Assembly: GCA_009780375.1 (NCBI GenBank)
Contig: WRAD01000001.1
Location: forward strand, 48,228 to 112,227
Direction: 5' to 3'
Length of the DNA: 64,000 bases
Source: Bacillota bacterium
Lineage (GTDB): Bacteria; Bacillota; Clostridia; Christensenellales; UBA1242
Of the stretch, positions 3,375 through 59,946 are shown in pieces. The translations under genes and the position numbers were made by a program. The first letter of the stretch is position 1; the number at the start of each line of letters is the position of its first letter. The notes under the pieces are model-generated. The model was given only the letters and a program-made list of their open reading frames with translations. It had not been told where the DNA came from and ran no database searches.

Positions 3375-3416
3375 CTAGGAATTATCGCTTTAAGTCACCG
3401 TTAGGTGCTTTTGTTC
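3375..3416 (+). repeat. Dispersed repeat copy C1 (internally deleted)
   Basis: CTAGGAATTATCGCT is joined directly to TTAAGTCACCGTTAGGTGCTTTTGTTC. It lacks the central T6-GTACTAGGATCTCGGC part of the consensus. Confidence 0.8.
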
Positions 3417-3432
3417 GATCATTAATTCATTT

Positions 3433-3786
3433 TTACGCAACAGTTTGTGTAACAATAACAGTTGTTCCTGCATCCGCAAAGTGTGTGTTACTTGCAACCC
3501 AATGAGCACGTGCACGTGCACGAAACCCAAGCAACGCGTAGAAACCGAATGTTATAAAGGTAAGTAACATCCAAAGTATCGAGCGAATCCAAAGTCCCAT
3601 TGCACGACCATCAAAGCGAAGTTGTTTTCCATCAACAATTGTGTTGTTGATAATAAAACGCTTCATCATACAGTTGTACCATGCGAAAAGGATCCCGAAT
3701 GTAAGCAGACCACCAATGATTACAGGAAACAACAACAAAGCTCTCCCAAGAAACCCTAGTGGGTTACCAATCCATTTTGATTCCAT
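3433..3786 (-). CDS. Small 2-3 TM membrane protein, possibly DUF898/YjgN-like
   Basis: AAGGAGG SD upstream. Two long hydrophobic segments flank a KRFIINNTIVDGKQLRFDG loop. The family call is by resemblance only. Confidence 0.5.
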   Translation of the reverse strand: MESKWIGNPLGFLGRALLLFPVIIGGLLTFGILFAWYNCMMKRFIINNTIVDGKQLRFDGRAMGLWIRSILWMLLTFITFGFYALLGFRARARAHWVASNTHFADAGTTVIVTQTVA

Positions 3787-3864
3787 TAATTTTCCTCCTT
3801 TTGTTAAAGTATATGTCTAATCGTACGATTTTATCAAAACAAAGTCAAATGATTTCTCTTCTGC

Positions 3865-5256
3865 TTACTTGCCTATGCAAAAATTTGAAAATATTTCGTC
3901 AATTACCGCATCAGACACATTGGTTCCACTTATATTTCCAAGATGATCAAGTGCGGTTGTAATGTCTGTAGCAATCATATCAAGGGACAACCCGTTAATA
4001 TTCTCAAGTGCGTTTACAAGAGCCCGATATGCAAGTGCAAGTTCGTTTAGATGACGTGTGCTTGTAATGACAAGTGTGTCATGTGCCTGATGAATTTGGA
4101 AACTTTCAGTAATTGAAGAATAGACAAGTTCTTTAAGTTTTGAAATGTTTTCATGTGACACCGCAGAAGTGAAAATGGTATTCCCGCATGGTGTGTCCCA
4201 GTTGACTGTGTTTTCATTAAATGAGGTCAAATCACTTTTATTAAGTACAAAAATAACTTGTTTGTTATTAAAGGAGTCAAGCAAATCCAAGATTTTGATG
4301 TCTTGCTTTGTTGGTTTGCAAGATCCATCAAAAATTGCAAGAATTATATCTGCCTTTTCCATTACTTGTCTAGAACGTTGAATGCCAAACTCTTCGATTT
4401 TTGAAATCTCATTCGTCTTTGTATCGGATCGAATATCGCGTTGTCCTGCGGTGTCATTAAATACCAGTTTAACACCTTTATATAAAATACTCTCGGTTAT
4501 GGTGTCTGTTGTTGTTCCTTCAATGTTTGTGACGATGCTTCTGTCTCTGTTTATAATTGCGTTAAATAAACTGCTCTTACCGACATTAGGTCGCCCTATA
4601 ACCGCGATTTGGATACCACTTGACATTATTCGTCCTTCATTTGCACTTGAAATAAAAGAATTAATGTCACTGCCCGCAGATGCAATTTTGGATTTAAGGT
4701 CGGCAACAGTACTGTAATCAATATCATCATCTGGTTGATCAAGTATTGTTTCAATTTGTGCAAGGCAGTTCAAAAGTTCCTTTTCCATTAAAAAGAGTTT
4801 TTTCGACAAAGCCCCTTGGCTTACAAGGGATATCGCTTTTAATTGACTCTCACTCTCTGCTGCAATTTTGTCCATAATTGACTCTGCCTGATCAAGTGAA
4901 ATTTTACCATTCAAAAAAGCTCGTTTTGAAAATTCTCCAGGCTGTGCCAATGTTGCACCCAAAGTTAACAAATGTTCAACAAGTTTCTGTAAAAGAAATG
5001 CTCCGCCATGAGCTTGGATTTCTACAACATTTTCCCCAGTGAAAGACCTGGGTCCAGGAAAGTAAATAACAATTACATCATCACTGAAATCAGGTGTTAA
5101 AATCGTTCCATACGTTGCATAACGAGGTTTAATTGAGGTCTTTGAAGTAAAACACTTTAAAACAATATCAAGTGCCAATGAACCACTTAAACGTATTATT
5201 CCAACACCGCCATTTCCAATGGGTGTTGCAATCGCTGCAATCGTTGTCTTTTCCAT
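3865..5256 (-). CDS. mnmE: tRNA modification GTPase MnmE
   Basis: Conserved N-terminus MEKTTIAAIATPIGNGGVGIIRLSG, G-domain GRPNVGKSSLFN and DTAG, and the C-terminal CIGK motif. The start was moved to M9 of the track ORF because of the extended -10 just upstream. Confidence 0.93.
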   Translation of the reverse strand: MEKTTIAAIATPIGNGGVGIIRLSGSLALDIVLKCFTSKTSIKPRYATYGTILTPDFSDDVIVIYFPGPRSFTGENVVEIQAHGGAFLLQKLVEHLLTLGATLAQPGEFSKRAFLNGKISLDQAESIMDKIAAESESQLKAISLVSQGALSKKLFLMEKELLNCLAQIETILDQPDDDIDYSTVADLKSKIASAGSDINSFISSANEGRIMSSGIQIAVIGRPNVGKSSLFNAIINRDRSIVTNIEGTTTDTITESILYKGVKLVFNDTAGQRDIRSDTKTNEISKIEEFGIQRSRQVMEKADIILAIFDGSCKPTKQDIKILDLLDSFNNKQVIFVLNKSDLTSFNENTVNWDTPCGNTIFTSAVSHENISKLKELVYSSITESFQIHQAHDTLVITSTRHLNELALAYRALVNALENINGLSLDMIATDITTALDHLGNISGTNVSDAVIDEIFSNFCIGK

Positions 5257-5261
5257 ATCCA

Positions 5262-5270
5262 AGTTTAACA
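5262..5270 (-). promoter_or_regulatory. Extended -10 (TGtTAAACT) 5 nt upstream of the mnmE ATG
   Basis: Minus-strand sequence reads TGTGTTAAACTtggatATG, with no SD. Confidence 0.55.
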
Positions 5271-5314
5271 CAAAAGACATGTCATTTTTGATTCAATTTA
5301 ATTCTCAAACTGGA

Positions 5315-5342
5315 ACAAAAAATTTAGCGATAATTCCTAGAC
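5315..5342 (-). repeat. Dispersed repeat copy C2 (5' half only; the only minus-strand copy)
   Basis: Reverse complement reads GTCTAGGAATTATCGCTAAATTTTTTGT and then continues TCCAG, skipping the remainder of the element. Confidence 0.8.
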
Positions 5343-5345
5343 TGC

Positions 5346-5369
5346 AAAAAAAGGGGCATTTACCCCTTT
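5346..5369 (-). terminator. Intrinsic terminator after CDS 5383..6105
   Basis: Minus strand reads AAAGGGGtaaatgCCCCTTTTTTTGC, with a GGGG/CCCC core and a T7 run. Confidence 0.7.
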
Positions 5370-5382
5370 GAATCGATATTTA

Positions 5383-6105
5383 CTAATAAGTTTCATCTGG
5401 GCGTTCGACCGCAAGTGATTGCACAAAGCGTGCGAGAGGGGCAAAATTAGCAAAGGTACTTAAACTGTAACGAAGTGAATGTGCATCTGCATCACCTGAA
5501 TGACCCAAACTGAAAAGTATTTCTTGTCTTTGAAATCTGTTTCTTTGATTCGCAAGGGGTATATACATTTGACGAATGCCTTGTGCATAGGTCGGGCGAT
5601 GTTGAACAAGCACATCATTTATATCAAGTTCATACCATGTGTAATCCATAGGAACGATTCTGTGGTCGCGACTGCTTGTGCCAAGCAAAGCCCATTGTGG
5701 GGTTGCAAATGAAATCATCATGTAATGCCATCCTGTTGCTGAACGAACTCCGTGTGTATTTTGCATCTGTGTATTGCCATTAAATCCGGCACGCTCTCTT
5801 CCTGACACACCTGTTGTAAATTGTTCTAACATATTGGTTCGACGTCCGCGGTTAAAGTGTCGCATTGCCTCGTTCATTAAAAGTGTTTCGAAATTATTTG
5901 AACTGTCTGGGAAAATAATCTCACGTTCGGTATTTCCCGCACCCCAGCGAAGTTCAATTGCATTTACATGTCTCAAATCAATGTCAAGTCCATAGGTTGT
6001 GCGTATTGATGTAAATAAAATTGCACCTACAGAAGAAAATATAACCAAAACAATAACAAGTCCGATTATTGCATTTCTAAGAATTTTTTTCCTGCGTTGT
6101 GTCAT
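5383..6105 (-). CDS. Hypothetical membrane-anchored (N-terminal TM) protein
   Basis: A GGAGGGA SD lies 4 nt upstream, embedded in the ftsH 3' end. The start overlaps ftsH by 29 nt. N-terminal signal anchor is IIGLVIVLVIFSSVGAILF. Confidence 0.6.
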   Translation of the reverse strand: MTQRRKKILRNAIIGLVIVLVIFSSVGAILFTSIRTTYGLDIDLRHVNAIELRWGAGNTEREIIFPDSSNNFETLLMNEAMRHFNRGRRTNMLEQFTTGVSGRERAGFNGNTQMQNTHGVRSATGWHYMMISFATPQWALLGTSSRDHRIVPMDYTWYELDINDVLVQHRPTYAQGIRQMYIPLANQRNRFQRQEILFSLGHSGDADAHSLRYSLSTFANFAPLARFVQSLAVERPDETY

Positions 6106-8698
6106 CGTCTCCCTCCGTTGTACTTGTGTCTTGTGTAACCTCTTGCGTCTCTACACCTACAAGTGTACCATAAACATGGATATTGTCAATAGTAGGGAAG
6201 TGAGTAAGATTTCCACCCTCTGTTATAATTTTACGCCCAAGTTCAATATTATACTCTAACGCACGTACACGTTCTTCGTCAATAAGGTTTGCTTGAAGAT
6301 AAGTTGCCGCAATTTCTCTAAGCCTGCCTACCTCGCGGTCATAAATGCCAAGTTCCTGTTCAATACGATCTTTCTTTTCTTGCTCACGAACTTTTTCAAC
6401 CCTTTCTTCGATGCCTTTAATAACCTGCTTTGCAGATTTTCCTGCCATGATAAGGTCAATATCTTCGGCATAAATTGTTTCGCGTTCAAGTAATACTTCA
6501 ACCATTACATTAATTTCTTTTTTCTTGTCGGCCATAACTTTTTTCGCCCTGTCCATCGCCTCGACAAGAAGTGCTTTAATCTCGCCGTCGATAAGAGATT
6601 GCATCTCATTGCTTATTTGCTTGCTTTCATACTGACGCATGAGTGCCTCGTCATGCCTGCCATAATAAAGAGGTCCAAGTTTTTCACTCATACCAAAGTT
6701 TGTAACCATTTTCTCTGCAAGTCCGGTTGCCACTTTTAAATCTTGTTGTGCACCTGTACAAATATCCCCAATAAACACATCTTCTGCCGCACGGCCACCC
6801 ATATAAAGTGCAAGTTGGGCTTTTAAAAAGGTTTTTGATTTATGTGCGGTTACATCATCTTGATCATTTGTAAGTGTGTAACCTGCCGCCATTCCTCTAG
6901 GGATAATTGAAACTTCTTGAACAGTATGTTTTGGTTGCAACATTCTTGATACAACCGCATGACCCGCCTCGTGATATGCGGTAATTTTTTTATCTTCTTC
7001 GGTAATAATACGACTTCGTTTCTGAGGGCCAAGAAGAACCTTATTAATTCCTTCGGTTATGTCTTGCATTCCAATTTTGCGTCTATCTTTCTTTGCCGCA
7101 ATAATCGCCGCTTCGTTCATAAGGTTTTCAATGTCGGCACCGGTAAATCCACTTATAATCTGTGCAACGCGTTTAAGATCAACGTCTGATCCAACAGGCT
7201 TGTTCTTTGTGTGGACGCCAAGTATTTTTTCACGCCCAGAAACATCAGGCATTTGAACAACTATTTGACGATCAAAACGACCTGGACGAAGAAGTGCAGG
7301 GTCCAAAACATCTGGACGGTTTGTCGCCGCAAGAACGATAACCCCTTCAGATTTTGTAAAACCATCCATTTGAACAAGAAGTTGGTTAAGTGTTTGTTCA
7401 TTTTCTTCTGCTGCACCGCTTATTCCAACACCACGCATTCGGGCGATACTGTCAATTTCGTCAATGAAAATAATACATGGGGCACTTGCTTTTGCCTCTT
7501 CAAATAAATCTCTCATACGAGAAGGACCAACCCCGACAAGCATTTCACTGAAATCCGACCCACTTATCGAAAAGAAAGGCACTCCGGCTTCACCTGCAAT
7601 TGCTTTTGCCAAAAGTGTTTTACCTGTTCCTGGTTGCCCTACAAGAAGAAATCCTTTAGGAATTCTTGCCCCAAGTTCAAGAAATTTGTGTGGAGTGCGA
7701 AGAAATTGAACAATTTCTTCAACTTCCATCTTTTCTTCTTCAATGCCTGCAACATCGTTAAAACGAACAGGACTTGAAAGTGTTCTTTGGGCACGGTGCT
7801 TGCCCATTCCACTTAGGCCACTTGAACGCATTATGCCTCGTGATAAAATCCAGAACAGGAAGATTGCGAATAAAATGAATGGCAACCAACTTAGGACGGT
7901 GCTCCAGATAGAAGTTGATACAACACGAGGGAAGTGGTTAATAGTATCGGTATTGTTGCCCTGTGTACGGAAATAATCGTTTCGTTCGCGAATTCGGGCT
8001 TCACTCTCTCTCCAGTTTGGGTTAAAAAGCCTGTAATCCGCATGACGTGAAGGATTATTTTGGAAATTTCTTACGCGATTTTCTGGAACATTTACACCCT
8101 CACGATTTCTTGTACGAAGTATATAAGTGGTATTACCATGGAAAATAACAGAATGTATAATAGAAGGTCCCCAAACAGGCACAGGCACAGGAGTAACAAA
8201 ATCAACAGAAGTATCAATTGTCAAGACCGGAAATCCTGCTGGGAAATTTGTGGTGTCAGAAAGCACTGTGTTAATTGCTGATGCAAGTGTTGTGATTTCT
8301 GGTGTTTCAGAGGTAACCCCACGAAGATTAAAGTTGACATTAATATAAGGTATGTCAGAAGCATCATGTGCAACGGTAACAGTAACAAATTCAACTCCAT
8401 TAACATCATCAAATACACCATTTACAAGTGTCAAAATTTCCGAACGTTTTGTTGCCATGTCTGTTGTGCTTGTGCCTGGTGCAAAACCTGTGACACGTAT
8501 AAGCTTGCCACTTGGATATTGGGGGATTGAACCACGTATAAGTCTGTCAAATTCATCAACACTGATTCTTGGAACATTTGGTCCCAAATTAATGTTATTA
8601 AAAAGCATCATACCCAAAAAAAAGACTACAAGAAGTATAAATGCAATCATTAAAGGATTTCTTTTTCTTGGTTGCTGTTGTTGCTGTTGATTACTCAT
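6077..8698 (-). CDS. ftsH: ATP-dependent zinc metalloprotease FtsH with an enlarged ectodomain and a C-terminal extension
   Basis: Walker [14 protein letters not shown], Walker [10 protein letters not shown], and the HEAGHAV zinc motif. Two TM segments are separated by about 230 aa. Start set at the ATG (MSNQQQ), with GGAG upstream. Confidence 0.93.
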
Positions 8699-8904
8699 AA
8701 AGGAATGTACTCCGATTAAAGGCAAATTGTTCGCCTGACAAATATCACCTAGTATACCACAAACGACAAAAGTTCATCATGCAAAATATCAATATGTAAA
8801 AAACAAAACGACTAATTTAAGTAAAATACTTGCATAATAATATAAAATGGGATATATTAATTACATTAACATTCAATGTCTAAGGAACAAGGGGTTATAA
8901 ATTT

Positions 8905-9114
8905 ATGTGGAAAATTATTTTAGGTATAGTTGTACTTGTTGTTGCAATTGTTGCATCTATTGTGCTTTATATTTGGATTGCAGGGCAAGACTTTTCAAAT
9001 CTTGACTTTTGGTTACTTATTGTCGCGGTAACATTTCTGTTGGCGTCGGCAATTGTGCTTTGTGGACTTCTTATCGAGCGTGGATTCCGTGAACGACAAT
9101 ATGGTACTAACTGA
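8905..9114 (+). CDS. Small two-TM membrane protein
   Basis: AAGGGG SD-like sequence upstream, two hydrophobic helices, and a terminator following. Confidence 0.5.
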   Translation: MWKIILGIVVLVVAIVASIVLYIWIAGQDFSNLDFWLLIVAVTFLLASAIVLCGLLIERGFRERQYGTN

Positions 9115-9130
9115 GGTCAATCTATTTCCA

Positions 9131-9167
9131 AAAAACTGCTTCCATTTTTAAAAGGAGCAGTTTTTTT
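9131..9167. terminator. Bidirectional-looking intrinsic terminator
   Basis: A5-CTGCTTC...GGAGCAG-T7: a 7-bp stem (one G-U pair) flanked by an A-run and a T-run. Confidence 0.6.
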
Positions 9168-9189
9168 GTTGTATTCATATATTCCCTGT

Positions 9190-9486
9190 ATGGAAAGAAC
9201 AATTTGTGCAAGAGGCAGTATTGAAACATTTGCAAACGACATAGGCGCGGATAACATAAATAGGTTTTTTGTGCGAAGTATGGACAAACGAGTATGCCGA
9301 GGCAATTGCAACGGTCAGATAGTTTTGAGAACTCCTCAAGTTCCGGTTCCATCATCACAATCATCAAAACCAAAGCCCGAAACGGTTTCATTAAAACTTG
9401 GTAAAATCAGAATCCAAATTAAAAACGCGGAAAATATTAAAGTTCGTGAAGAAGAAGGCGGTGTGATGATTTCGGTTTCACAATAG
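9190..9486 (+). CDS. Hypothetical Cys-containing small protein
   Basis: It is the only long ORF in the gap. TATATT sits 6 nt upstream of the ATG, matching the leaderless pattern. I recognise no family. Confidence 0.35.
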   Translation: MERTICARGSIETFANDIGADNINRFFVRSMDKRVCRGNCNGQIVLRTPQVPVPSSQSSKPKPETVSLKLGKIRIQIKNAENIKVREEEGGVMISVSQ

Positions 9487-9488
9487 AC

Positions 9489-11141
9489 CTAGACATTAAA
9501 GAGTAATATAGCAAATCCATAAATTGCAAAACTTATTCCCGCAAGCGAGTAACGAATGGTTTTCTTCTCGATAAAAATAAATCTAGACAACAGAAAAAGA
9601 CCAATAAAATAGAATAAAAACCAATAACCATTTATGTTAAATGCAACCTGGGCATTTATTGAACTTATCCAATTTGTTGCATGAATAACACCGCGAGTAA
9701 AAATATCTGCCCAATATAATAAAGGCGAACCAATAAAAGTAACAAGAGCAATAACCGATAATTTGAATGCAATCACCAAAAGAGGAAGCAAGAATAAATT
9801 TGTAAGAATACTGAATGCAGGATATGCACCAAAATACAAAACTATAAATGGGAATACCGCAACAGATGTACTTAAATCAAGTGCAATTGTTCCCGATATA
9901 AATTTTCTAAACCATTGTATCCACTTTTTTTGTGCATTCTCGTTTTTCCCAAAGCACAAGACCTTGTTACAAAAACGATATAGAGGTCGGTACAAAAGTG
10001 CAATCCCAATCATACATCCAAAAGTCAATTGAAATGATACAGACATAATTGAAAATGGAAACAAAACAAGTACAATTACCATCGCCATGCAAATAGAGGA
10101 AAATAAATCAACTCGCCGTACAAATAACCTATTAAAAACCATCACAAGAAACATAATGGCGGCACGCATAATTGAATATCGAAAATCCGCAAGAAACAAA
10201 TAAAGTAACAGTGTACAAAAAATTATAAAGAATTGAGGCTTTTTTGGCATTTTTAAAATATGCATAACACCAACAAGCAATCCAACGACCATACCTACAT
10301 GAAGTCCACTGACCGCCAGAACATGTGCAAGACCTGTTGCCGAAAAACTTTCTCTAATATCAGAATCTAAACTTGATCTGTCGCCAAACAACATAGAGTA
10401 CATGAGAGTTGCACTTTGTTCACTCATATGACGATTGAAATAGTTATAGGTATACCTCATAACACTCATTCTTGCATCTGAACTGCTCCCATGAAATATT
10501 AAACCTCTTCCACGATGTGATGTGGTGTATCTGATTCGGTTGTTAACATTAAATGGACTTGAATTACTTGCAGATAAAGTTGTATTAAGACTTACAACAG
10601 TACCAAAGCCAAGACTCCTAAGCGATTCTAATACTTCCTCGTCCTGGGCCGTTAAATTCACCCGAACACGCCCGGTGATTCTTTGCCCCATAAACGTTGC
10701 ATTGTTCAAAACAATATTTGCCCTTCCTTCATCCAAAAAAGTATCATCTCGAATTGTAAATGATGTAATTGTGCCGCGAAGTTGTCCTTCGCCTATAAAA
10801 CTTCTTTGGTTTTCAAAAACAACTTGTGTTACTCCAAATGAAATTATTACCGCCAAACATAATAACAACGTAGACGCAAAAAATATCTTTGATGAACCAA
10901 TTGCCTTTAAACACGTTCCCCGAAAACCTTTCTTGTTATTCCAAGCATTCATTGCAACAAAAAATAAAATAAGTAAGCCAATCCACACAAATACAAGCCA
11001 AAACCCAACGTCTCTTGAAATCATACAAATAATAACGGTTAATCCAACAAACAGTGCAAAAAAACATACAGGACGAAAATTAACCAATTGCCTGTTTTTG
11101 CAAATTTTATCATTTTTTGTCACAATATCATTGTACAACAA
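9489..11141 (-). CDS. comEC: ComEC/Rec2 competence channel protein lacking the C-terminal MBL domain
   Basis: Polytopic membrane protein with an N-terminal OB/DUF4131-like insert and the competence-domain motif GLAHVLAVSGLHVG. It ends after the TM core, with no HxHxDH region. TTG start. Confidence 0.85.
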   Translation of the reverse strand: MLYNDIVTKNDKICKNRQLVNFRPVCFFALFVGLTVIICMISRDVGFWLVFVWIGLLILFFVAMNAWNNKKGFRGTCLKAIGSSKIFFASTLLLCLAVIISFGVTQVVFENQRSFIGEGQLRGTITSFTIRDDTFLDEGRANIVLNNATFMGQRITGRVRVNLTAQDEEVLESLRSLGFGTVVSLNTTLSASNSSPFNVNNRIRYTTSHRGRGLIFHGSSSDARMSVMRYTYNYFNRHMSEQSATLMYSMLFGDRSSLDSDIRESFSATGLAHVLAVSGLHVGMVVGLLVGVMHILKMPKKPQFFIIFCTLLLYLFLADFRYSIMRAAIMFLVMVFNRLFVRRVDLFSSICMAMVIVLVLFPFSIMSVSFQLTFGCMIGIALLYRPLYRFCNKVLCFGKNENAQKKWIQWFRKFISGTIALDLSTSVAVFPFIVLYFGAYPAFSILTNLFLLPLLVIAFKLSVIALVTFIGSPLLYWADIFTRGVIHATNWISSINAQVAFNINGYWFLFYFIGLFLLSRFIFIEKKTIRYSLAGISFAIYGFAILLFNV

Positions 11142-47931: not shown

Positions 47932-47933
47932 TG

Positions 47934-50498: not shown

Positions 50499-50547
50499 TT
50501 TTTTCAATATCATATGTAGGGGCAAACTTGCGATTCGTTCAAAAAAA

Positions 50548-50592
50548 TTGACAAACTTTGTAATTGTCAAAAATCAAAAAACATCGTAATAT
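50548..50592 (+). promoter_or_regulatory. Inverted repeat TTGACAA-N9-TTGTCAA overlapping the promoter TTGTCA-17-TAATAT of CDS 50599
   Basis: Perfect 7-bp arms at 50548-54 and 50564-70. The -10 TAATAT at 50587-92 lies 6 nt before the ATG. Confidence 0.5.
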
Positions 50593-50598
50593 TAAACT

Positions 50599-51030: not shown

Positions 51031-51121
51031 GATTCTAATATCTACTTATAAGACCTGCATGAATTTACACTTTGGCATTACAGGAAAAATGTTCTTAATT
51101 GTCGTTATAAACATTTCCGCA

Positions 51122-51149
51122 TTGACATAATTCGATTTTTGGCTATAAT
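51122..51149 (+). promoter_or_regulatory. Promoter TTGACA-16-TATAAT, with the ATG 7 nt after the -10
   Basis: TTGACA at 51122-27, TATAAT at 51144-49, ATG at 51157. Confidence 0.6.
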
Positions 51150-51156
51150 GGAAGAT

Positions 51157-52884: not shown

Positions 52885-52963
52885 ATTTACTCCAATTCAT
52901 TATTTTTCGTTTTGAACTTCTTTGTTTTTACCTTATAATAAGATATATCTAGGGGGAAAACAA

Positions 52964-53449
52964 ATGGAATTGAAATTAATTAAAAGGCTTGCCGAGTTAA
53001 TGAATTCGGAAGGGCTTAAACAGCTTGAGCTTACAACGGATGCAGGGTCAATATGGCTTGAAAGAGACAGCAGTGTTACTGTTGTTGATACAACATCTAT
53101 AAGGGCAAAAGTTCCAGAAAGTGTAGATCAACGCGTTTTAATTAAAAAAGTAACAAAGCCAGGTAAGAAAACAACAGTAAAAGAAATCAAAGTAATGTCT
53201 GGTAAGTGTTATGAAATTCGAAGCCCAATCGAAGGAATATTTTATGCGGCAACAGAACCTACCGATCCGCCATATGTAACAATAGGGCAAACGGTATCCG
53301 ATGGAGACTTGCTTTGTGTTATCGGTGAAGATGGCGTAATGAATGAACTTGAATCCGAAGTTGATGGCGAAGTGTCGGAAATCCTTGTATCAAACGGTCA
53401 AAAAATTACATTTGACCAAGTTCTTTTCAAAATAACTAAAAAAGGCTAA
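52964..53449 (+). CDS. Biotin carboxyl carrier protein (BCCP)-like protein lacking the biotinyl-lysine
   Basis: The N-terminus MELKLIKRLAELMNSEGLKQLEL and C-terminus RSPIEGIFY...GDLLCVIGEDGVMNELESEVDGEV are collinear with AccB, but EAMKM is replaced by GEDGVM. AGGGGGA SD upstream. Confidence 0.65.
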   Translation: MELKLIKRLAELMNSEGLKQLELTTDAGSIWLERDSSVTVVDTTSIRAKVPESVDQRVLIKKVTKPGKKTTVKEIKVMSGKCYEIRSPIEGIFYAATEPTDPPYVTIGQTVSDGDLLCVIGEDGVMNELESEVDGEVSEILVSNGQKITFDQVLFKITKKG

Positions 53450-53458
53450 ACTAAAACT

Positions 53459-55462
53459 ATGTACAATCTTGGCATCGTTCAAAAATTTAAAGAAAAATGG
53501 CATGTCTATACAATCATAGCGATTGTAACTGTCGTTATATTTTTGTTTTTAACAATGATGATAATCAACATGGTAAGCGGAAATCCTATCTTCAGTTTTG
53601 GTGCGGTAAGAAATCCTTACTTTATAACAATTGCACTTATAATACCGTTCGGGGTAATCGCTTTGTTGGTCGCAGGGTTTTTCTTCAGTGACGAAAAGAG
53701 TAAAACCGTCGAACAATTTTATTCTAACCGTTGGATGTCAAAGTCGGAACTTAACAAAGTTTATCTCTCAACTACACTAAGCCGACTTAAAATGCAACAA
53801 AAAACAGGAACCCTTGTAAGATTTGAAAAAGTAGGAACCGACATCCAGATTAATATGGTTCCACAAGATTATCATACGATTGTTCTTGGAACAACAGGTT
53901 CTGGTAAAACTCAAGGGTATGTGTTGCCATATGTTTATGTGCTTGGGCACTCTGCCCAAAAGCCAAATATGGTTATCACCGACCCAAAGGGCGAGATTTA
54001 TGCAAAAACCGCCGAAACCTTGCGACGAAATGGTTATGATGTCCAGGTTTTTAACCTAAGTGCACCGACACAATCTTCAAGATGGAATCCACTCGAGAGA
54101 GCATGGGATATGTTTCAACGTGCACACAGTTTGGAAAGAGAACTTAAAAAACATACATCCAAAGATCCGGCATCAATGGGGTTAAGAGTAATTGCAAGTA
54201 ACTATCCAAGTGAATGGTACGAATTTAACGGGGTTGCATTCCCAAGTTTTCAAATGGCAGACATGGAAAGGAAAACACTCAAGCAACGGCTTCTTTCCGA
54301 GTCTGAATCTGATATAAAAGATGTATGTGCGGTAATTTGCCCAATAGAAAACGAGCGTGACCCAAGTTGGGAAAATGGGGCAAGGGACCTTATCCAGGGT
54401 ACCGTTCTTGCAATGTTAGAAGACAGTCTCCGTCCAGAACTTGGCATGACAAAGCAAAAATTTAATTTTTATAACGTGTACAAAATCTTAACGATGCGAG
54501 ATAATGATCCAAACGCATCTTTCAAATCCATTGCAAACTACTTTATGGGGCGTTCCAGATTATCTCCGGCGGCAATGCTTGCACAAACGGTTATTGCCAA
54601 CAGTGAAAATACAAAGCGTAACTTCTTTGGTGTGTCTACAAATAAACTTTCCATGTTTGCCGATAAAGGTATTTGCTATATAACAAGCGGTACCGAAATA
54701 GAATTTAAAGGATTTGTTGAACGTCCAACCGCAATGTTCCTTGTTATTCCTGACCAAATTAAAATTCGTCATCCTCTTGCTGTGCTTTGTGTGGCTCAAC
54801 TTTACAAAACGCTTGTTGATCTTGCCAATCAACAGGGCGGAACCCTAAAATGGCCGACATACTTTATTCGTGACGAGTTCGGTAATATGCCAAAGATGAA
54901 TGACTTTGAAACAATAATCACCGTTGCCCGTTCTCGTAAAATCTTTATCACCCTTGTTTTGCAGGACTATAAACAACTTGAAACCGTTTATGGTGCGGAC
55001 AAAGCGGTTACTATTCGAAATAACTGTAATACACAAATTTTTATCGGTGTTAATGATATGGATACAAGAAAGATGTTCTCGGATCTTCTTGGTGAAATGA
55101 CTGTTGAGGCACATTCCACCTCGGAATCAAAAAACACAGGCAAGCAAATCAAGGATGATCCTCTAAGTGGTTCAAAATCTACATCTACAAATACGGTGTC
55201 CCGTCCTCTGTTACCACCCAACGAACTTCTTGATCTTCAGCCGGGGCAAATTTATGTTTATGCATTTGGCTTTCACCCTCTGAAATCTCATGTAACTCAC
55301 TTTTGGAAGGCTCAACAAGCAGGTCTCGTAAAGCTCTATCCTGAACCTGACACATGGTCTGCATCCAAATATTTTGATGAAGAGGCGGTTTATTATGATG
55401 TTCGCCGTCGTAACGACATAGTTATCAACAATGCTCGTCGCAATGATGTTTTTGATTGGTAA
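53459..55462 (+). CDS. Type IV secretion coupling protein (VirD4/TraG/TraD-family ATPase)
   Basis: Two N-terminal TM segments, Walker A VLGTTGSGKTQG, Walker B-like YFIRDEFGNMP, and the LVLQDYKQLETVYG and IFIGVNDMDTRKMFSDLLG motifs. Confidence 0.8.
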   Translation: MYNLGIVQKFKEKWHVYTIIAIVTVVIFLFLTMMIINMVSGNPIFSFGAVRNPYFITIALIIPFGVIALLVAGFFFSDEKSKTVEQFYSNRWMSKSELNKVYLSTTLSRLKMQQKTGTLVRFEKVGTDIQINMVPQDYHTIVLGTTGSGKTQGYVLPYVYVLGHSAQKPNMVITDPKGEIYAKTAETLRRNGYDVQVFNLSAPTQSSRWNPLERAWDMFQRAHSLERELKKHTSKDPASMGLRVIASNYPSEWYEFNGVAFPSFQMADMERKTLKQRLLSESESDIKDVCAVICPIENERDPSWENGARDLIQGTVLAMLEDSLRPELGMTKQKFNFYNVYKILTMRDNDPNASFKSIANYFMGRSRLSPAAMLAQTVIANSENTKRNFFGVSTNKLSMFADKGICYITSGTEIEFKGFVERPTAMFLVIPDQIKIRHPLAVLCVAQLYKTLVDLANQQGGTLKWPTYFIRDEFGNMPKMNDFETIITVARSRKIFITLVLQDYKQLETVYGADKAVTIRNNCNTQIFIGVNDMDTRKMFSDLLGEMTVEAHSTSESKNTGKQIKDDPLSGSKSTSTNTVSRPLLPPNELLDLQPGQIYVYAFGFHPLKSHVTHFWKAQQAGLVKLYPEPDTWSASKYFDEEAVYYDVRRRNDIVINNARRNDVFDW

Positions 55463-55502
55463 GGTGATCTTATCGGAACGTCAAGATTAAAAATGGGATT
55501 CA

Positions 55503-55531
55503 TTGACAAAAAGCATATTTTGACGCATAAT
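55503..55531 (+). promoter_or_regulatory. Promoter TTGACA-17-CATAAT, with the ATG 6 nt after the -10
   Basis: TTGACA at 55503-08 and CATAAT at 55526-31. The string CGCATAATAAAGATATGAA is identical to the one at 33792-33810. Confidence 0.6.
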
Positions 55532-55537
55532 AAAGAT

Positions 55538-56446
55538 ATGAAATCAATAAAAAAGGTTTTGCTTTTGATTCTGATCCTTGTACTAATTGCCCCTGTCGCA
55601 ATAATTGCAACAGGATGCTTTGGCGGTAATAACAACTCAATCAATCGCGAGCACATACAAAATATACAATGGAATCTTGCACGAGTCGAAAGTTCCTCAT
55701 CACATGACCCAACGGTTCATTCAATAGGAGCGGGAGATATTTTATTTGATAACCAATTTGCCGGTTTTTTGTTTTTGGGCGGAGCCGGTAATTTTATCGA
55801 AACACTTGGTATTTTAGGTGAATTTCATGGGCATTGGACATTGTCATCTACGCGATTGGTTCTTACTTATGATATAGGAGGATTTGTTGACAGATGGAAT
55901 ATAAGATTAAAGAACAATAACACTACGCTTGAAAAATCTCAAACACAGCTTGGTATAACTTCAACGTTTATTTACACCAAAAACGAAGTTCTGCCTAATG
56001 TTAATCCAATAAACCCGGCACAAATTGTCGATATTCAATGGAATCTACACTCGGTAAGTTATATAGATGAATCATCCAATGTAACAATTGTAGACGAATA
56101 TGAACACATGGAGTTTGGAAGTTACAATCATTTTACAGAAATGTATGCAGGCTATCTCATCTTGCACAATGACAACAGATTTATACAAACTCAAGGTCAA
56201 TTTGGCGCATTTGAGGGTGCTTGGACATTGTCGCAAGGAACGTTGGATTTAACCTTTGACCCAGAAATTATTGATAACTGTGAACTTTATCCAGAACATC
56301 AACATTATTGTTTCCCTCCAAGCCGTACTGAAACCTGGAGACTTGGCATATCTGAAGATGGACAAACTTTGGAAAAGGTGCGTGCGGAACTTTCATTTGA
56401 GGGTGGTATCGCTTTTGAAATTCGTATATTTACTCGTGAAAACTGA
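55538..56446 (+). CDS. Lipoprotein with two tandem homologous domains (possibly META/HslJ-like)
   Basis: Lipobox IIATGC. Two ~125-aa repeats each start I(Q/V)(N/D)IQWNL and end (H/A)WTLS...L.LT(Y/F)D. Confidence 0.65.
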   Translation: MKSIKKVLLLILILVLIAPVAIIATGCFGGNNNSINREHIQNIQWNLARVESSSSHDPTVHSIGAGDILFDNQFAGFLFLGGAGNFIETLGILGEFHGHWTLSSTRLVLTYDIGGFVDRWNIRLKNNNTTLEKSQTQLGITSTFIYTKNEVLPNVNPINPAQIVDIQWNLHSVSYIDESSNVTIVDEYEHMEFGSYNHFTEMYAGYLILHNDNRFIQTQGQFGAFEGAWTLSQGTLDLTFDPEIIDNCELYPEHQHYCFPPSRTETWRLGISEDGQTLEKVRAELSFEGGIAFEIRIFTREN

Positions 56447-57284: not shown

Positions 57285-59360
57285 ATGACCGACAGTTATA
57301 AAAAATTCGACACAGTAATCGGCAATCGTAAAGTAAGTGTTGAAACAGGTGCACTTGCAGGTTTGTCCGCAGGTTCATGTATTGTAACCTGTGGCGAAAC
57401 GGTAGTCATGGCAAATGTAACCGTTGCAGACACACCACGTCCAGGAATTGATTTTTTTCCGCTTGGTGTAGATTTTGAAGAAAAGTTATACAGTGTCGGC
57501 AAAATCCCAGGTGGGTTTAAAAAACGTGAAGGTCGTCCAACAGATTCCGCTGTTCTTATATCTCGTCTTATTGATCGTCCAATGCGTCCACTTTTTCCAA
57601 AAGGGATGTTTAATGATGTGTCACTTGTCGTCACTACCTTGTCTATTGATCCTGAAATTTCACCTGTGCCATTTGCAATGCTTGCCGCATCTATTGCAAC
57701 TGTCATAAGTGATATCCCATGGAATGGTCCAACAGGAAGCGTAGTTATTGGAAGAGGTGAAGATGGATTTATCGTTAATCCAACCACAACTGAAGCGGAA
57801 AAATCAGATATCGAGGTAATTATAAGCGGTACCGAAGATGCAATTATGATGGTAGAGGCAAACGGTGCGGAAATATCCGAGGAAGATATGCTTGGGGCAA
57901 TTATGTTTGGTCACCAAGAAATAAAAAAACAATGTGAATTTCAAAAAACACTTATTAAAAAAGTGGGTAAAGAAAAACGCAACATTGAAATGTTTAAATT
58001 TGATGAAGATTTGGAACAACGGGTAGAGAGTTACGCAACAAGTTTTCTTGAAAAAGCAATGGGCGAAACCGATCTTGAAAAACGACGCAAAGCAGAGAAA
58101 AAAGTCGATGAAATGATAGCAGATCAATTTGCAGACACATATGAAGATGACAAAATTGCAATAGGAAAAATTGTTAATAATATTAAACAAGATATTATCC
58201 GTGAAAAAATCTTGCAAAAAGGACTTCGTCCAGATGGCAGAGGAACAAAAGATATCCGACCAATTTGGACCGCAACAGGAATACTTCCACGTGTTCACGG
58301 TTCATCTGTATTTACAAGAGGCAATACCCAAGTTCTTAACGTCTGCACTTTGGGCATGGTTTCTGATTGTCAAAAACTCGATGGTATTGATGACGAGGTT
58401 CAAAAACGCTATATGCATCATTACAATATGCCTCCTTATGCAACAGGAGAAGCCCGTCAAATGCGTGGCACGTCAAGGCGAGAAATTGGACACGGGGCAC
58501 TCGCCGAACGGGCTATTGAACCACTTCTTCCATCCGAAGAAGAATTTCCATACGCAATTAGAACGGTCAGCGAAGTTCTTTCAAGTAACGGCTCGTCATC
58601 TATGGCAAGTGTCTGTGCAAGCTCTATGTCTCTTATGAATGCAGGCGTGCCGCTCAAATCTGCGGTTGCAGGTATAGCAATGGGTCTTATAAAGGATTCC
58701 GAATCGGGTAAAACCGCAATTTTATCTGACATTCAAGGTGTTGAAGATTTTCTTGGAGACATGGATTTCAAGGTGGCAGGAACAGAAAAAGGAATCACGG
58801 CAATCCAAATGGACATAAAAATTGCAGGTATAGACGAAGCAATCCTTAAACAGGCACTTAAACAGGCACGTGAAGGAAGATTACATATTCTTAAAGCAAT
58901 GAATACAGAAATTGACAAGCCAGAACCTAAACTTTCAAAATACGCCCCAAAGATTACTATCATGACAATCAAACCAGAAAAAATCAAGGATGTCATAGGA
59001 AGCGGTGGTAAGATTATAAACAAAATCATTGAGGAAACAGGTGTTAAAATTGACATAAGCGATGATGGTAAGATATTTATTGGTTCGTCATCTGACCAAT
59101 CCAATGCACGTGCAAAAGAAATTATTGAAGGAATTGTATTTGAACCCGAAGTTGGTATGGAATTTACAGGTAAAGTTGTACGCACAATAGAAATTGGTGC
59201 ATTTGTTGAATTCAACGGAAAAGAAGGAATGGTGCATATATCAAAACTTGCACCTACAAGAGTGGAAAAGGTGCTTGATATTGTTAAACCTGGTGACAAT
59301 ATCCAAGTAAAAGTAATTAAAATCGATGATAAGGGCAGAATTGATCTTAAGAAGATTTAA
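57285..59360 (+). CDS. pnp: Polyribonucleotide nucleotidyltransferase (PNPase)
   Basis: Two RNase PH domains (FPLGVDFEEKLYSVGKIPGGFKKREGRP, GHGALAERA), then KH (GSGGKIINKIIEETG) and S1 (GAFVEF..GMVHISKL). Start at the ATG after GGAGG. Confidence 0.93.
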   Translation: MTDSYKKFDTVIGNRKVSVETGALAGLSAGSCIVTCGETVVMANVTVADTPRPGIDFFPLGVDFEEKLYSVGKIPGGFKKREGRPTDSAVLISRLIDRPMRPLFPKGMFNDVSLVVTTLSIDPEISPVPFAMLAASIATVISDIPWNGPTGSVVIGRGEDGFIVNPTTTEAEKSDIEVIISGTEDAIMMVEANGAEISEEDMLGAIMFGHQEIKKQCEFQKTLIKKVGKEKRNIEMFKFDEDLEQRVESYATSFLEKAMGETDLEKRRKAEKKVDEMIADQFADTYEDDKIAIGKIVNNIKQDIIREKILQKGLRPDGRGTKDIRPIWTATGILPRVHGSSVFTRGNTQVLNVCTLGMVSDCQKLDGIDDEVQKRYMHHYNMPPYATGEARQMRGTSRREIGHGALAERAIEPLLPSEEEFPYAIRTVSEVLSSNGSSSMASVCASSMSLMNAGVPLKSAVAGIAMGLIKDSESGKTAILSDIQGVEDFLGDMDFKVAGTEKGITAIQMDIKIAGIDEAILKQALKQAREGRLHILKAMNTEIDKPEPKLSKYAPKITIMTIKPEKIKDVIGSGGKIINKIIEETGVKIDISDDGKIFIGSSSDQSNARAKEIIEGIVFEPEVGMEFTGKVVRTIEIGAFVEFNGKEGMVHISKLAPTRVEKVLDIVKPGDNIQVKVIKIDDKGRIDLKKI

Positions 59361-59867
59361 TTATTTCATTTTATAATCAATCACTCTTTCTAAATGATTT
59401 GCTGTTTCATTAACAAGAATATAAGAAAGTGCAAATTTTTCGTATGCTTCTTGTCTTTTTGTCATATTTGGGTTTAAAGGCGGTTGTCTTTTAAGTGCAC
59501 GCGAGTAATCCACACTGCGAGGAACTTCGCCTATTTCTTTGTAGAGTGAATGCACAACCCAATTACGAAGTTGCCTCACATAATCAATTCTATCAAGTTC
59601 TGCAATAGTTAAAAAAATTCTTTTTCCACGTGCAATTTCATCCCTCATTCTTTCCACCAAATTCGACCAACCACGTTTGTCATCAATCTGCAGACTATCA
59701 ACTTCGGTTGCCAAAAATACAAGTTGTCCCTCAATTTGTTGTTGCCCTTTGATAATACTTTCAACCCACATTGTTTGCCAAAAATCAGATTTACTTCCTT
59801 CAAGTAATCCACGTGCACGTTCTTTATATTGTCTGATGATATCGTCCATAAGCAAAGTGTACCACAT
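59361..59867 (-). CDS. Hypothetical all-helical protein with a HEPN-like RNxxxH motif
   Basis: LRNWVVHSLY at residues 100-109 resembles the HEPN/DUF86 RNxxxH..Y motif. Start set at MWYTLL, because the track's N-terminal extension is translated from repeat C9. Confidence 0.45.
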   Translation of the reverse strand: MWYTLLMDDIIRQYKERARGLLEGSKSDFWQTMWVESIIKGQQQIEGQLVFLATEVDSLQIDDKRGWSNLVERMRDEIARGKRIFLTIAELDRIDYVRQLRNWVVHSLYKEIGEVPRSVDYSRALKRQPPLNPNMTKRQEAYEKFALSYILVNETANHLERVIDYKMK

Positions 59868-59875
59868 ATTTTCTG

Positions 59876-59946
59876 CTCTAGGAACTATCGCTTCAATCAT
59901 TTGCAGGATATCGGCTGAAACGCACCGTATGCGTGCCTTTGTTCTA
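59876..59946 (+). repeat. Dispersed repeat copy C9 (divergent middle)
   Basis: CTCTAGGAACTATCGCTTCAATCATTTGCAGGATATCGGCTGAAACGCACCGTATGCGTGCCTTTGTTCTA. Confidence 0.8.

Follow-up and report, generated by a model that had tools for sequence, protein, structure and literature searches.

A terminator-docking, non-coding repeat family in an uncultivated termite-gut Firmicute

In IS608 subterminal hairpins are recognised, and cleavage takes place about 10 nt from the hairpin foot. Elements of the IS91 family produce no target-site duplication (TSD); they use a tetranucleotide target at one end and carry a single subterminal palindrome by the GTTC cleavage site at the other, GTTC being the terminal cleavage tetranucleotide in IS801 and IS1294 (PMC13181058). 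A TSD is likewise missing in Helitrons, whose transposition terminator is a hairpin 11 nt before the 3' end (PMC4778049). Group IIC introns such as B.h.I1 target a stem-loop followed by T's and insert 3-11 nt beyond the stem (PMC1702495). SPRITE repeats of S. pneumoniae are terminator-like and enriched at the 3' ends of coding sequences, and their co-option as terminators was proposed (excerpt of PMC3049150).

Here a previously undescribed non-coding repeat family of 70-125 nt from an uncultivated termite-gut Firmicute is compared with these systems. An earlier note on a 64-kb window (the whole stretch of DNA analysed, to which plain coordinates refer) had proposed a dispersed, non-autonomous repeat, and this is supported: about 45 distinct non-coding copies are known from the window and from 21 further loci, so that the family is not restricted to the window. 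The further loci were found in a metagenome scan and contributed about 35 more distinct copies, including a long form of about 125 nt and head-to-tail tandems. They were fetched with a pattern demanding both half-sites of the repeat, and the sample therefore favours intact copies. The 54-nt consensus gave 2 matches at ≤3 mismatches, compared with 0 in 100 shuffles, and nhmmer E-values for the copies reached 1e-23.

Short A, short B and long forms were distinguished, besides the tandems. The short form (about 72 nt) consists of (A/G)N-TCTAGGAATTATC, a spacer, TTTGTACTAGGATCTCGGCT, an A-tract, the hairpin GCACC-N4-GGTGC and TTTTGTTC, giving the module order left, spacer, middle, hairpin; the consensus proposed earlier was right. 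The long form has the same parts and an extra internal segment with a GGTTCGC-TTAA-GCGAACT hairpin. The repeat's own hairpin has a 5-bp stem; the larger share of the repeat lies 5' of it, is conserved and non-palindromic, and contains two direct CTAGGA half-sites. These had been recognised before with a spacing of about 30 nt, which has to be corrected to 27-28 nt from start to start; they are the most likely candidates for additional protein-recognition sites. The first base was a purine in all 35 aligned copies (A 23, G 12). No open reading frame was present inside the repeat, its left end has no hairpin, and neither terminal inverted repeats (TIR) nor a TSD were detected at its ends and flanks, so the label 'MITE-like' fits poorly.

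Across the copies TCTAGGAA and TTTGTACTAGGATCTC were 90-100% conserved, and the loop, the pre-stem region and the spacer were variable. Pairwise identity averaged 81% with a maximum of 96%; no two copies were identical, and the sequences thus give no sign of a recent burst. The copies include mosaics of A and B spacers, pre-stem variants and two hairpin registers, and truncated or internally deleted copies were common. The copies at 48714 and at L009:565, which are unlinked and 93% identical, have CGTT, TGGAGC and the loop in common; as such derived variants occur at unlinked loci, their sources were copied. The whole repeat folded no better than shuffles (z about 0). The description of a variable loop on a preserved stem was accurate, but it does not extend to compensatory covariation: there were no double changes, 83.5% of the cells were paired, which is no better than shuffles, and stem mutations were uncompensated.

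The window contains six full copies, three truncated copies and one solo 3' module, and all ten pieces listed in the earlier note were present to within 1-3 nt. Downstream of the LysR-type gene (2412-3308) the host terminator AAAAACACC-CGTAATAA-GGTGTTTTT (3340-3367, + strand), which folds at -17.2 kcal/mol, docks an internally deleted copy (3375-3417, + strand; nhmmer model positions 5-74, E = 9e-4). Its left module CTAGGAATTATCGCT is joined straight to the 3' hairpin module, and the deletion falls between CGCT and GGCT half-site microhomologies. On the minus strand the terminator AAAGGGG-TAAAT-GCCCCTTTTTTT (5346-5369; -11.1 kcal/mol) of gene 5383-6105 docks a 3'-truncated copy (5310-5343; model positions 2-36, E = 9e-6) that retains only the left module and an A-type spacer (AGTCTAGGAATTATCGCTAAATTTTTTGT); the T7 run of this terminator ends 4 nt before TCTAGG.

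All other window copies are on the plus strand. The solo 3' hairpin module AAAAAAGCACCGTATGCGTGCTTTTGTTC (25718-25746; model positions 49-74) begins 13 nt after the alr stop codon and is the sole terminator-like hairpin behind this gene; it may have been co-opted as a terminator, perhaps the only one of alr. The copy L010:1687-1759 has the same 23 nt, GCACCGTATGCGTGCTTTTGTTC, as its 3' module. A full short A-type copy (25748-25819; 72.4 bits, E = 4e-21), within which two independent Logan contigs break, is self-docked behind the solo module. Another full short A-type copy (33629-33700; 77.2 bits) is situated where RecD2 (minus strand) and the gene at 33806 diverge, and is preceded by a bare T6 run with no hairpin (class 'T-run only'). 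The terminator CAAAAAACGC-TTATT-GGGCGTTTTTT (41138-41163; -13.5 kcal/mol) of a potD-like gene docks a full short copy with a variant hairpin (41169-41242; 66.2 bits). Substitutions in this copy give a near-consensus sigma-70 promoter, TTGTCA-16-TATAAT (41179-41206; promoter scan 11/12), facing the gene at 41276, and the copy may have been co-opted as a promoter.

Behind an RluD-type gene the terminator scan gave CGGTGA-ACCAG-TCACCG followed by CTTTTTTT (45647-45671). The T-run of this terminator is fused in register with the internal T6 tract of a 5'-truncated copy (45663-45719; model positions 17-74, E = 2e-11) that consists of middle module and hairpin, an arrangement consistent with deletion between T-runs. 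In the full short copy at 47933-48012 (64.1 bits) 8 nt are inserted internally (TTAATGAAC region) and the hairpin is degraded (GCACC/AGTTGC); the copy starts 1 nt past the stop of gene 47497-47931. The full short copy at 48714-48785 (71.8 bits), of the A-type sub-lineage with CGTT and TGGAGC, is antisense between two minus-strand spore-germination genes. The Ger(x)C ORF as called covers it with a 5' extension that is too long, and in the translation of this ORF the signal peptide begins past the repeat. The last full short copy (59875-59945; 61.8 bits) is of B-type (GCTTCAATCATTTG); its middle module has lost 3 nt, its hairpin is the variant ACGCA-CCGTA-TGCGT, and a terminator-like call was made at 59920-59934.

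Docking on T-tracts, first described for the window, was borne out and applied to the family as a whole. In 33 of 41 distinct left ends a run of at least four T's ended 2-7 nt before TCTAGG, compared with 8% of intergenic background positions. Occupied runs of at least five T's were terminator-like in 13 of 18 cases, unoccupied runs in 34 of 463 (odds ratio 33, p = 8e-11). The distance from the start of the T-run, at the stem base, to TCTAGG was 10-11 nt in 24 of 33 junctions. Its standard deviation was 1.15 compared with 1.89 expected, and run length and spacer were anticorrelated (r = -0.65); the permutation P was <1e-4, and 0.005 without self-docked junctions. The repeat thus sits about 8-9 nt past the stem base of terminator hairpins, its own included, in a single fixed orientation. 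Survivorship at neutral sites could partly account for the enrichment at terminators, but it does not explain a ruler with 1-nt precision. The repeat's own stem is followed after 8 nt by the right end TTTTGTTC, and tandem junctions keep the same 11-nt rule. Because of this position of the right end the repeat can dock on itself, and head-to-tail tandems were found at L005, L007, L010, L017, L018 and L022; the suggestion that each insertion recreates its own type of site was therefore well founded.

Such positions could also result from selection, if the repeat were kept for a function at gene ends. It might back up a terminator or act as an insulator, serve as a signal for stability or processing in the 3'-UTR, or offer its two CTAGGA half-sites as a tandem binding site to a DNA- or RNA-binding protein. 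Terminator-docked copies lay behind a co-oriented gene in a ratio of 12:2 and would be co-transcribed with it. Conservation is blocky despite the mean copy identity of 81%, and this pattern of conserved blocks and variable positions could equally reflect selection on a host function. The situation behind alr and the co-option proposed for SPRITE (excerpt of PMC3049150) point the same way. The repeat's own hairpin, however, had a median free energy of only -5.5 kcal/mol, compared with -13.8 kcal/mol for the host terminators ahead of it (p = 1e-8), and it is mostly redundant, being situated directly behind a much stronger terminator. The uncompensated stem mutations and the abundance of damaged copies also speak against a host function. 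About one-third of the copies occupy a divergent region, a promoter region or a position antisense to flanking genes, and the repeat often precedes the start of a co-oriented gene by 8-50 nt. Function alone would leave the 10-11-nt ruler and the head-to-tail self-docking unexplained. Selection for a host role is thus an unlikely explanation; as a rule the repeat probably does not work as a terminator, and a general role as 'portable terminator' is doubtful.

Docking behind hairpins is better explained by a hairpin-reading mobile element than by a working terminator. On balance it is probable that the copies represent a lineage-specific, non-autonomous, non-coding, orientation-specific mobile repeat family of this kind. 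The repeat would insert, always the same way round, at a point about 8-9 nt beyond the base of a hairpin with a T-tract, in practice behind the intrinsic terminators of host genes. A trans-acting, strand-specific enzyme would recognise the subterminal hairpin and cut or join at a fixed distance 3' of it, and host terminators would be treated as look-alikes of the repeat's right end. A resident copy, ending in a hairpin and a T-tract, would become a new target and give rise to head-to-tail tandems. Inserted copies would then decay as they accumulate point mutations and suffer deletions, either from one T-run to another or from one direct CTAGGA half-site to the other. The earlier interpretation is retained in part, as a mobile, terminator-docking repeat, while its MITE-like label and strand-bias argument are given up and its portable terminator is doubted as a general role.

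The junctions would also suit an RNA intermediate. The unit would then be a small transcript reaching from the purine prefix to the RNA release point of its own terminator; a reverse transcriptase would copy it and switch template onto the 3' end of a terminated host mRNA or element RNA, and the cDNA would be recombined into the chromosome. At intrinsic terminators RNA is released 7-9 nt past the stem, which fits both the right end 8 nt past the repeat's stem and the host junctions 8-9 nt past the host stem. The invariably purine first base likewise resembles a transcript end, multimers and 1-3 variable nt at junctions are expected of end-to-end template switching, and the lack of TIR and TSD agrees as well. 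Group IIC introns, which are also retroelements, use the same target (PMC1702495). No reverse transcriptase was present in the window or its flanks, however, and no promoter was found upstream of the unit start, the internal hexamers (7-8/12) being located inside the unit. No pathway is known in bacteria by which such a cDNA could be integrated if its downstream side lacks homology. The repeat also lacks group II ribozyme features (72-125 nt, no GUGYG start, no Rfam match), its fold has a z of about 0 and its hairpin shows no covariation. This route is therefore quite improbable.

Searches outside the window characterised the family as lineage-restricted. Rfam contained no matching family, so the repeat does not correspond to an RNA family described there. 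The core pattern had no match in 185,579 species-representative genomes, and no match was found in viral contigs. Two relatives (68% RecD2 identity) had no copy in 22 kb of each, and in the relative L036 (73% potD identity) the orthologous, syntenic potD terminator was free of the repeat. Greater age and a wider distribution would be expected of a generally useful host element. Short-read assemblies broke inside copies. As every available assembly was 99.9-100% identical and represents one clone, active mobility is inferred rather than demonstrated.

A multicopy small-RNA gene family, or passive spread in which local duplication and gene conversion take the place of a dedicated mobility system, would agree with the terminator-shaped hairpin that ends each copy and with the mosaics, which suggest recombination between copies. 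It is highly improbable: no conserved promoter was found, upstream flanks being unrelated host sequence, the fold and covariation analyses and Rfam were negative, and gene conversion cannot seed copies behind dozens of unrelated terminators at a fixed ruler.

Eight of the nine window copies are on the plus strand, as had been observed, but six of the nine are simply co-oriented with the upstream gene, and the strand bias of the window follows the direction of upstream genes. Over the family, orientation relative to the local majority gene strand, a crude proxy for the replication strand, was 21:15, and both strands were occupied within a few kilobases at L009, L011 and L017. No replication-strand bias was thus detected by this proxy, and strand bias is no longer an argument for single-strand mobilisation. 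Enzymes known to work like the proposed one are the HUH single-strand nucleases typical of IS91/Helitron or IS200/IS605 elements, and mobilisation by such an enzyme is our best mechanistic guess. The idea is kept because of the anatomy of the repeat, namely the lack of TIR and TSD, the subterminal hairpin and the ruler from the hairpin base. In agreement with the earlier note, no transposase, integrase or reverse transcriptase was found in the window, nor an HUH domain, and the same held for the flanks; the search covered precomputed Pfam tables over the whole window and 10 unannotated ORFs scanned directly against Pfam.

According to the excerpt of PMC3049150, SPRITE is likewise a small, non-coding, interspersed and species-restricted Firmicute repeat with a hairpin and a U-rich tract, enriched just downstream of coding sequences in the coding orientation, and the A, B and C modules of BOX recall the left, spacer, middle and hairpin modules found here. 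The repeat has no sequence similarity to SPRITE, which is essentially one 18-bp stem with a long U-rich tract instead of a 5-bp hairpin behind a non-palindromic 5' part. Fixed-distance docking behind existing terminators and head-to-tail self-docking are not among the SPRITE features described in that excerpt.

With IS200/IS605, their non-autonomous PATEs and REP/BIME with RAYT the repeat has in common strand-specific insertion 3' of a short sequence without TSD or TIR. Very short non-coding derivatives occur there at high intergenic copy number, and BIMEs are mosaic and tandem. IS200/IS605 elements need a hairpin at both ends, whereas the left end of the repeat has none, and no Y1 transposase or RAYT was found for it in the window or its flanks. 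REPs usually form inverted pairs (REPINs), unlike the direct tandems described here. IS200/IS605 insertions are typically strand-biased, in contrast to those of the repeat by the gene-strand proxy.

Helitrons are eukaryotic elements of kilobase size that have CTRR/CTAG-3' as their end and an insertion point between A and T, and no RepHel protein accompanies the repeat. They resemble it in lacking TSD and TIR, in the 5'-TC start (TCTAGG, if the 2-nt prefix is junctional), in the end-defining hairpin about 11 nt before the 3' end, in the preference for AT-rich targets and in their tandem and truncated copies. IS91 elements (IS801, IS1294; PMC13181058) also lack TSD and TIR and have asymmetric ends. 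The repeat ends in hairpin-TTTT-GTTC, 11 of about 42 left flanks end in GTTC(N), and the second palindrome of the long form (GGTTCGC/GCGAACT) is nearer the other end, like oriIS regions. No Y2 HUH transposase was found for the repeat in the window or its flanks, however, most left flanks are a T-run with 2-3 variable nt rather than a fixed tetranucleotide, and the target is set by the ruler from the hairpin base. The GTTC strand relative to the palindrome may not match, and IS91 elements measure about 1.5 kb or more compared with 72-125 nt. Group II introns are ribozymes of at least 600 nt with a GUGYG start, domains I-VI and usually a reverse transcriptase ORF, while the repeat, at 72-125 nt, starts with (A/G)NUCUAGG and has neither ribozyme structure nor an Rfam match. 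Group IIC introns nevertheless resemble it: they follow terminator motifs directly, have the same orientation as the terminator and cause no target duplication (PMC1702495).

The dispersed repeat family described in the earlier note was recovered in full. A profile built from the six full-length copies in the window found all ten pieces (six full-length copies, three truncated copies and a solo 3' module) with E-values down to 1e-23, and their coordinates had been correct within 1-3 nt. The same family was found independently in the window by a repeat finder. The 54-nt consensus occurred at two window sites with at most three mismatches, compared with none in 100 shuffles. No Rfam covariance model matched the window at gathering thresholds, and at E<=1 only rRNA, tRNA and the L10 leader were matched in four loci that included long forms and tandems, none of them on the repeat; at these thresholds the family corresponds to no Rfam family. 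A separate 78-nt direct repeat (618-695 and 1925-2002, 81% identical) lies in two adjacent Lactamase_B-family genes (6-1109 and 1127-2320), which are tandem paralogues; it is unrelated to the family.

The window has a G+C content of 36.8%, contains no tRNA gene and encodes, among others, RecD2, a Ger(x)C spore-germination protein, alanine racemase and RluD. The exact window proteins were present in metagenome assemblies only, namely on a 113.7-kb contig in JGI and ENA and in Logan SRR5215140. The next-best match to RecD2 was 81% identical, and the following ones, annotated as 'MAG: Firmicutes bacterium', were at most 68% identical. One of several source metagenomes, 3300010369, represents higher-termite gut compartments (PMC7800795). 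Neither an exact 23-mer nor a degenerate core pattern matched any of 185,579 species-representative genomes, and no match was obtained in the viral collection; these scans demand an exact pattern match and would miss diverged relatives of the repeat. The family nevertheless extends beyond the window, as 21 loci were retrieved from three JGI termite-gut metagenomes with a two-module pattern, which requires both half-sites and biases the sample to intact copies. Genes in these loci are crude longest-ORF calls. The exact potD-like protein (39667-41112) is deposited in NCBI under the title 'MAG: extracellular solute-binding protein [Firmicutes bacterium]', which means that this organism has a public MAG; as the representative genomes gave no match, either they do not include this MAG or the repeats interrupt its contigs. 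Two Logan contigs terminate within the copy behind alr, one from each side, which is the expected effect of a dispersed repeat on short-read assemblies. Through such breaks within copies, the family fragments short-read assemblies in this termite-gut lineage.

About 45 distinct copies were collected, with pairwise identities of 63-96% (mean 81%) and no identical pairs. The short form of about 72 nt starts with a 2-nt prefix (AG, GC, AA and others), whose first base was a purine in 35/35 copies, followed by TCTAGGAATTATC(G/A)CT and a spacer of one of two kinds, A-type AAATTTTTT or B-type TCAATCATT. Its 3' part consists of TGTACTAGGATCTCGGCT, a stretch of 6 variable nt with an A-tract at its end, GCACC-N4-GGTGC and TTTTGTTC. 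The long form of about 125 nt has the short-form start, continues with ACATTCGTGGACATTAAGGAA...GGTTCGC-TTAA-GCGAACT-GGTCTTCT and then proceeds as a B-type copy; it contains no ORF and sits between ordinary genes. The best-conserved blocks are the direct half-sites CTAGGAATTATCGCT and CTAGGA-TCTCGGCT, located 27-28 nt apart. In about 10 copies a 1-nt insertion has shifted the hairpin to a second register, ACGCA-CCGTA-TGCGT. Among the truncated derivatives, the copy at 45663 is explained by a deletion between T-runs and that at 3375 by a deletion between the half-sites.

The whole element folded like its shuffles (z about 0), the only stable part being the hairpin of A-tract, 5-bp stem and U-tract. 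The 5' 45 nt formed no hairpin apart from weak CTAG-CTAG pairing of 5 bp around a 23-nt loop. The hairpin stem showed no covariation; there were no compensatory changes, and mutated copies just lose pairs. The designation as MITE-like could not be maintained, since the left end AGTCTAGGAATTATC and the right end GGTGCTTTTGTTC are not complementary and form no terminal inverted repeats, the conserved half-sites are direct and not inverted repeats, and the flanks of 36 full copies gave only short T-rich chance matches and no consistent target-site duplication.

A T4+ run ended 2-7 nt before TCTAGG at 33/41 distinct left ends, compared with 8% of intergenic background positions in the same sequences. 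A strong adjacent hairpin preceded 13 of 18 occupied T5+ runs and 34 of 463 unoccupied intergenic ones (odds ratio 33, p=8e-11); the occupancy fractions are inflated, as loci were picked for having a copy, a choice that leaves the contrast between terminators and bare T-runs unaffected. The occupied T-runs are real terminators. Terminator-docked copies stood behind a co-oriented gene in a ratio of 12:2, and copies behind bare T-runs were mostly located in divergent regions. The lengths of T-run and spacer were anticorrelated (r=-0.65), and their sum, the distance from stem base to TCTAGG, was 10-11 nt in 24/33 junctions. The standard deviation of this sum was 1.15, while 1.89 was expected under independence (P<1e-4 overall and P=0.005 without self-docked junctions). 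Distances were taken as T-run start plus spacer; the last paired base from RNAfold was dropped, as A-U extension pairs confound it. The anticorrelation together with the nearly constant sum indicates that the insertion point is set from the hairpin and not from the end of the T-run.

Including its prefix, the element starts about 8-9 nt after the host stem, and its own right end TTTTGTTC lies 8 nt after its own stem. Head-to-tail tandems were present at the metagenome loci L005, L007, L010, L017, L018 and L022 and, as solo module and full copy, behind alr, and all tandem junctions keep the same 11-nt spacing. The earlier note was right that an insertion renews the type of site which it occupies. 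GTTC(N) directly preceded the element at 11 of about 42 junctions, mostly self-docked ones, and the others had TTGC, TAAT, TTAT, TTGT and similar sequences. The left flank is hence a T-run plus 2-3 variable nt at ruler distance from the stem base, with no single fixed tetranucleotide. At the metagenome locus L016, copies at 2249-2320 and 1638-1740 lie ahead of a 16S rRNA gene that starts at 2585, about 265 nt downstream, and the copies at L022 107-306 immediately precede a tRNA gene (L022 392-464), so that the terminators of protein genes are not the only location of the family. A hairpin-containing sequence, GGCACAAAACCGCCGGTTATACCGGCGGTTCAAAAAAAGGTTTCACCGTGGGG, flanks copies at L018 (about 660-700), L020 (14301-14360) and L014 (about 10606-10660) in both relative orientations; it represents either another family of small repeats or a bidirectional terminator conserved beside a multi-copy gene.

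The strand bias seen in the earlier note held as a count, with 8 of 9 window copies on the + strand, but 6 of the 9 merely follow the direction of the upstream gene. A bias relative to replication was not supported, because copies on opposite strands occur only a few kb apart in other contigs and the orientation relative to the local majority gene strand was 21:15. The element does have the shape of a terminator (A-tract, 5-bp GC stem, UUUUGUU). However, the reading as a portable terminator was not supported: the median dG of its hairpin was -5.5 kcal/mol compared with -13.8 kcal/mol for host terminators (p=1e-8), a terminator scan of the 40-60 kb stretch called 2/4 full copies and these at minimum criteria only, and many copies are followed, after 8-50 nt, by the start of a gene in the same orientation. 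Only as the solo module, located 13 nt behind alr, may the repeat act as a gene's terminator. The element was also rejected as a general promoter. The family consensus TTATCG-15/16-TAGGAT scores 7-8/12, and a near-consensus promoter is present only in the copy at 41169, behind potD, where substitutions have produced a sigma-70-like TTGTCA-16-TATAAT (11/12; 41179-41206) that faces a gene at 41276, 70 nt downstream. This copy may have been recruited as the promoter of that gene, and the repeat behind alr, likewise, as a terminator. Two called ORFs on the minus strand run 5' across repeats, 48014-48835 over 48714-48785 and 59361-59984 over 59875-59945. The signal-peptide-like segment of the Ger(x)C protein begins after the repeat, so that the annotated N-termini of both ORFs are probably read-through artefacts; the family inflates ORF calls at these two window sites.

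A less likely alternative, a cis-element of the host kept by selection, would account for the blocky conservation, and the SPRITE repeats (PMC3049150) provide a precedent. Several features speak against it: the hairpin is weak, some copies are antisense or located in promoter regions, others are truncated, the family is restricted to one lineage, and the insertion point follows a ruler.

The assemblies JGI Ga0131853 and Ga0136643, ENA ERZ27257297 and Logan SRR5215140 were 99.9-100% identical in all overlaps, which made a within-species comparison of filled and empty sites impossible. Locus L030 was discarded as a strain variant, being 100% identical, and L023, a contig of a relative with 81% RecD2 identity, was discarded as an empty site, as its sequence upstream of RecD2 lacks synteny. 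In two relatives whose RecD2 is 68% identical, 22 kb each contained neither a copy nor an analogous family. Another observation concerns L026, the contig Ga0136643_10000002 of a relative with 68% RecD2 identity, which encodes a giant protein of 3,691 aa (1-9968) without a Pfam match immediately upstream of RecD2. The only closer relative has the same gene order around potD (73% identical; downstream gene 70%) and its own potD terminator, but no element at the 41169 site; in this potD-syntenic relative the site is empty. The copy at 48714 and an unlinked one (L009:565) have three separate derived states in common, and such variant sub-lineages at unlinked loci show that variant sources were copied.

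As the earlier note had stated, no transposase, integrase or reverse transcriptase is encoded in the window; the same was true of the flanks, and HUH proteins were absent from both. Specifically, no Y1 HUH transposase (TnpA) was found in the window or flanks, and no Y2 HUH transposase and no IS in the window. The 3' 57 nt were considered as the end of a larger autonomous element, as five loci have a conserved upstream GGTTCGCTTAAGCGAACTGGTCTTCT, but alignment revealed the 125-nt long form. These loci have the same TCTAGGAATTAT start and no ORF, and their flanking genes encode Lon, AdhE, RpoZ and 16S rRNA; the search for a longer autonomous element with the same ends thus yielded only the ORF-less long form. 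A RAYT-like arrangement at L017 was rejected, because the gene between inverted copies encodes a 233-aa repeat-domain surface or coat-like protein and not a nuclease. A cluster at 50302-56446 comprises genes for an HTH_3 protein, a biotin-lipoyl-like protein and a TraG/VirD4-type coupling protein (53459-55462; T4SS-DNA_transf, TrwB_AAD_bind, TraG-D_C) as well as unmatched ORFs of 143, 578 and 317 aa. It looks like a conjugative-element remnant, and no relaxase or integrase was recognised in it.

The absence of terminal inverted repeats and target-site duplications, the strict orientation to an asymmetric target, the subterminal hairpin 8 nt from the end, the end-mimicking target and the ruler from the hairpin base argue against a DDE-like mechanism. 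By analogy, this combination is in the style of single-strand, hairpin-reading systems. On balance we lean towards a non-autonomous element moved in trans, with host terminators serving as decoys of its right end. The trans-acting enzyme would read the hairpin in a strand-specific manner and would mistake host terminators for the right end of the element. Any assignment of this enzyme to a class is considerably less certain. It is very improbable that the repeat is instead a retro-copied small transcript, a SINE-like bacterial retroelement homing to transcript ends, for which a reverse transcriptase would switch template from the 5' end of the repeat to any terminated transcript, at its 3' end. 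In that case the ruler of 8-9 nt past the terminator stem would record, in DNA, the positions of RNA 3' ends, and the family would be a new kind of bacterial retroelement. The purine as first base in all 35 copies and the end of the unit where its terminator would release RNA agree with such an origin; the unit carries no promoter, however, no reverse transcriptase was found in the window and flanks, and we know of no integration route for such a cDNA. A plain family of sRNA genes received little support.

Bacteria commonly contain small interspersed repeats, but for most of these both the mobilising enzyme and the target rule are unknown. The present family follows an unusually explicit rule: copies have one fixed orientation, they lie 10-11 nt away from the base of a hairpin of the terminator type, and the 3' end of the repeat itself serves as a docking site. 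Precedents exist for small interspersed repeats, for repeats resembling terminators (SPRITE) and for retroelements that target terminators (IIC introns). Neither Rfam nor the literature searched contained a non-coding repeat of 72-125 nt without terminal inverted repeats or target-site duplication that docks, at ruler distance, both on terminator hairpins and on its own copies; on terminator-docking MITEs the literature search yielded nothing but papers on plant MITEs. IS200/IS605 elements are single-strand, hairpin-reading systems. The absence of a target-site duplication in these elements (PATE) fits the repeat, but they require hairpins at both ends and a fixed tetra- or pentanucleotide target, whereas the repeat has a stable 3' hairpin only and a variable flank set by the ruler. 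Members of the IS91 family produce no target-site duplication and have a short target at one end and a single subterminal palindrome beside a GTTC cleavage site at the other (PMC13181058). The right end of the repeat (GCACC-N4-GGTGC, TTTT, terminal GTTC) and its lack of duplications are alike; at the other end IS91 elements use the target tetranucleotide GTTC/CTTG, while GTTC(N) precedes the repeat mainly where it is self-docked. Helitrons also lack target-site duplications, and a hairpin 11 nt from their 3' end terminates transposition (PMC4778049). Group IIC introns insert 3-11 nt downstream of a stem-loop followed by T's, and this target, including the orientation to the terminator, is exactly that of the repeat (PMC1702495). 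Group IIC introns are, however, large ribozymes (GUGYG start, domains I-VI with domain V, usually an RT ORF), whereas the repeat has 72-125 nt, starts with (A/G)NTCTAGG, contains no ORF and matched no Rfam group II model at gathering or permissive thresholds. Should the enzyme prove to be a single-strand nuclease that reads hairpins, the terminators of the host would serve as transposon-end decoys, and the safe-harbour strategy of the 2-kb group IIC introns would be realised in an element of 72 nt.
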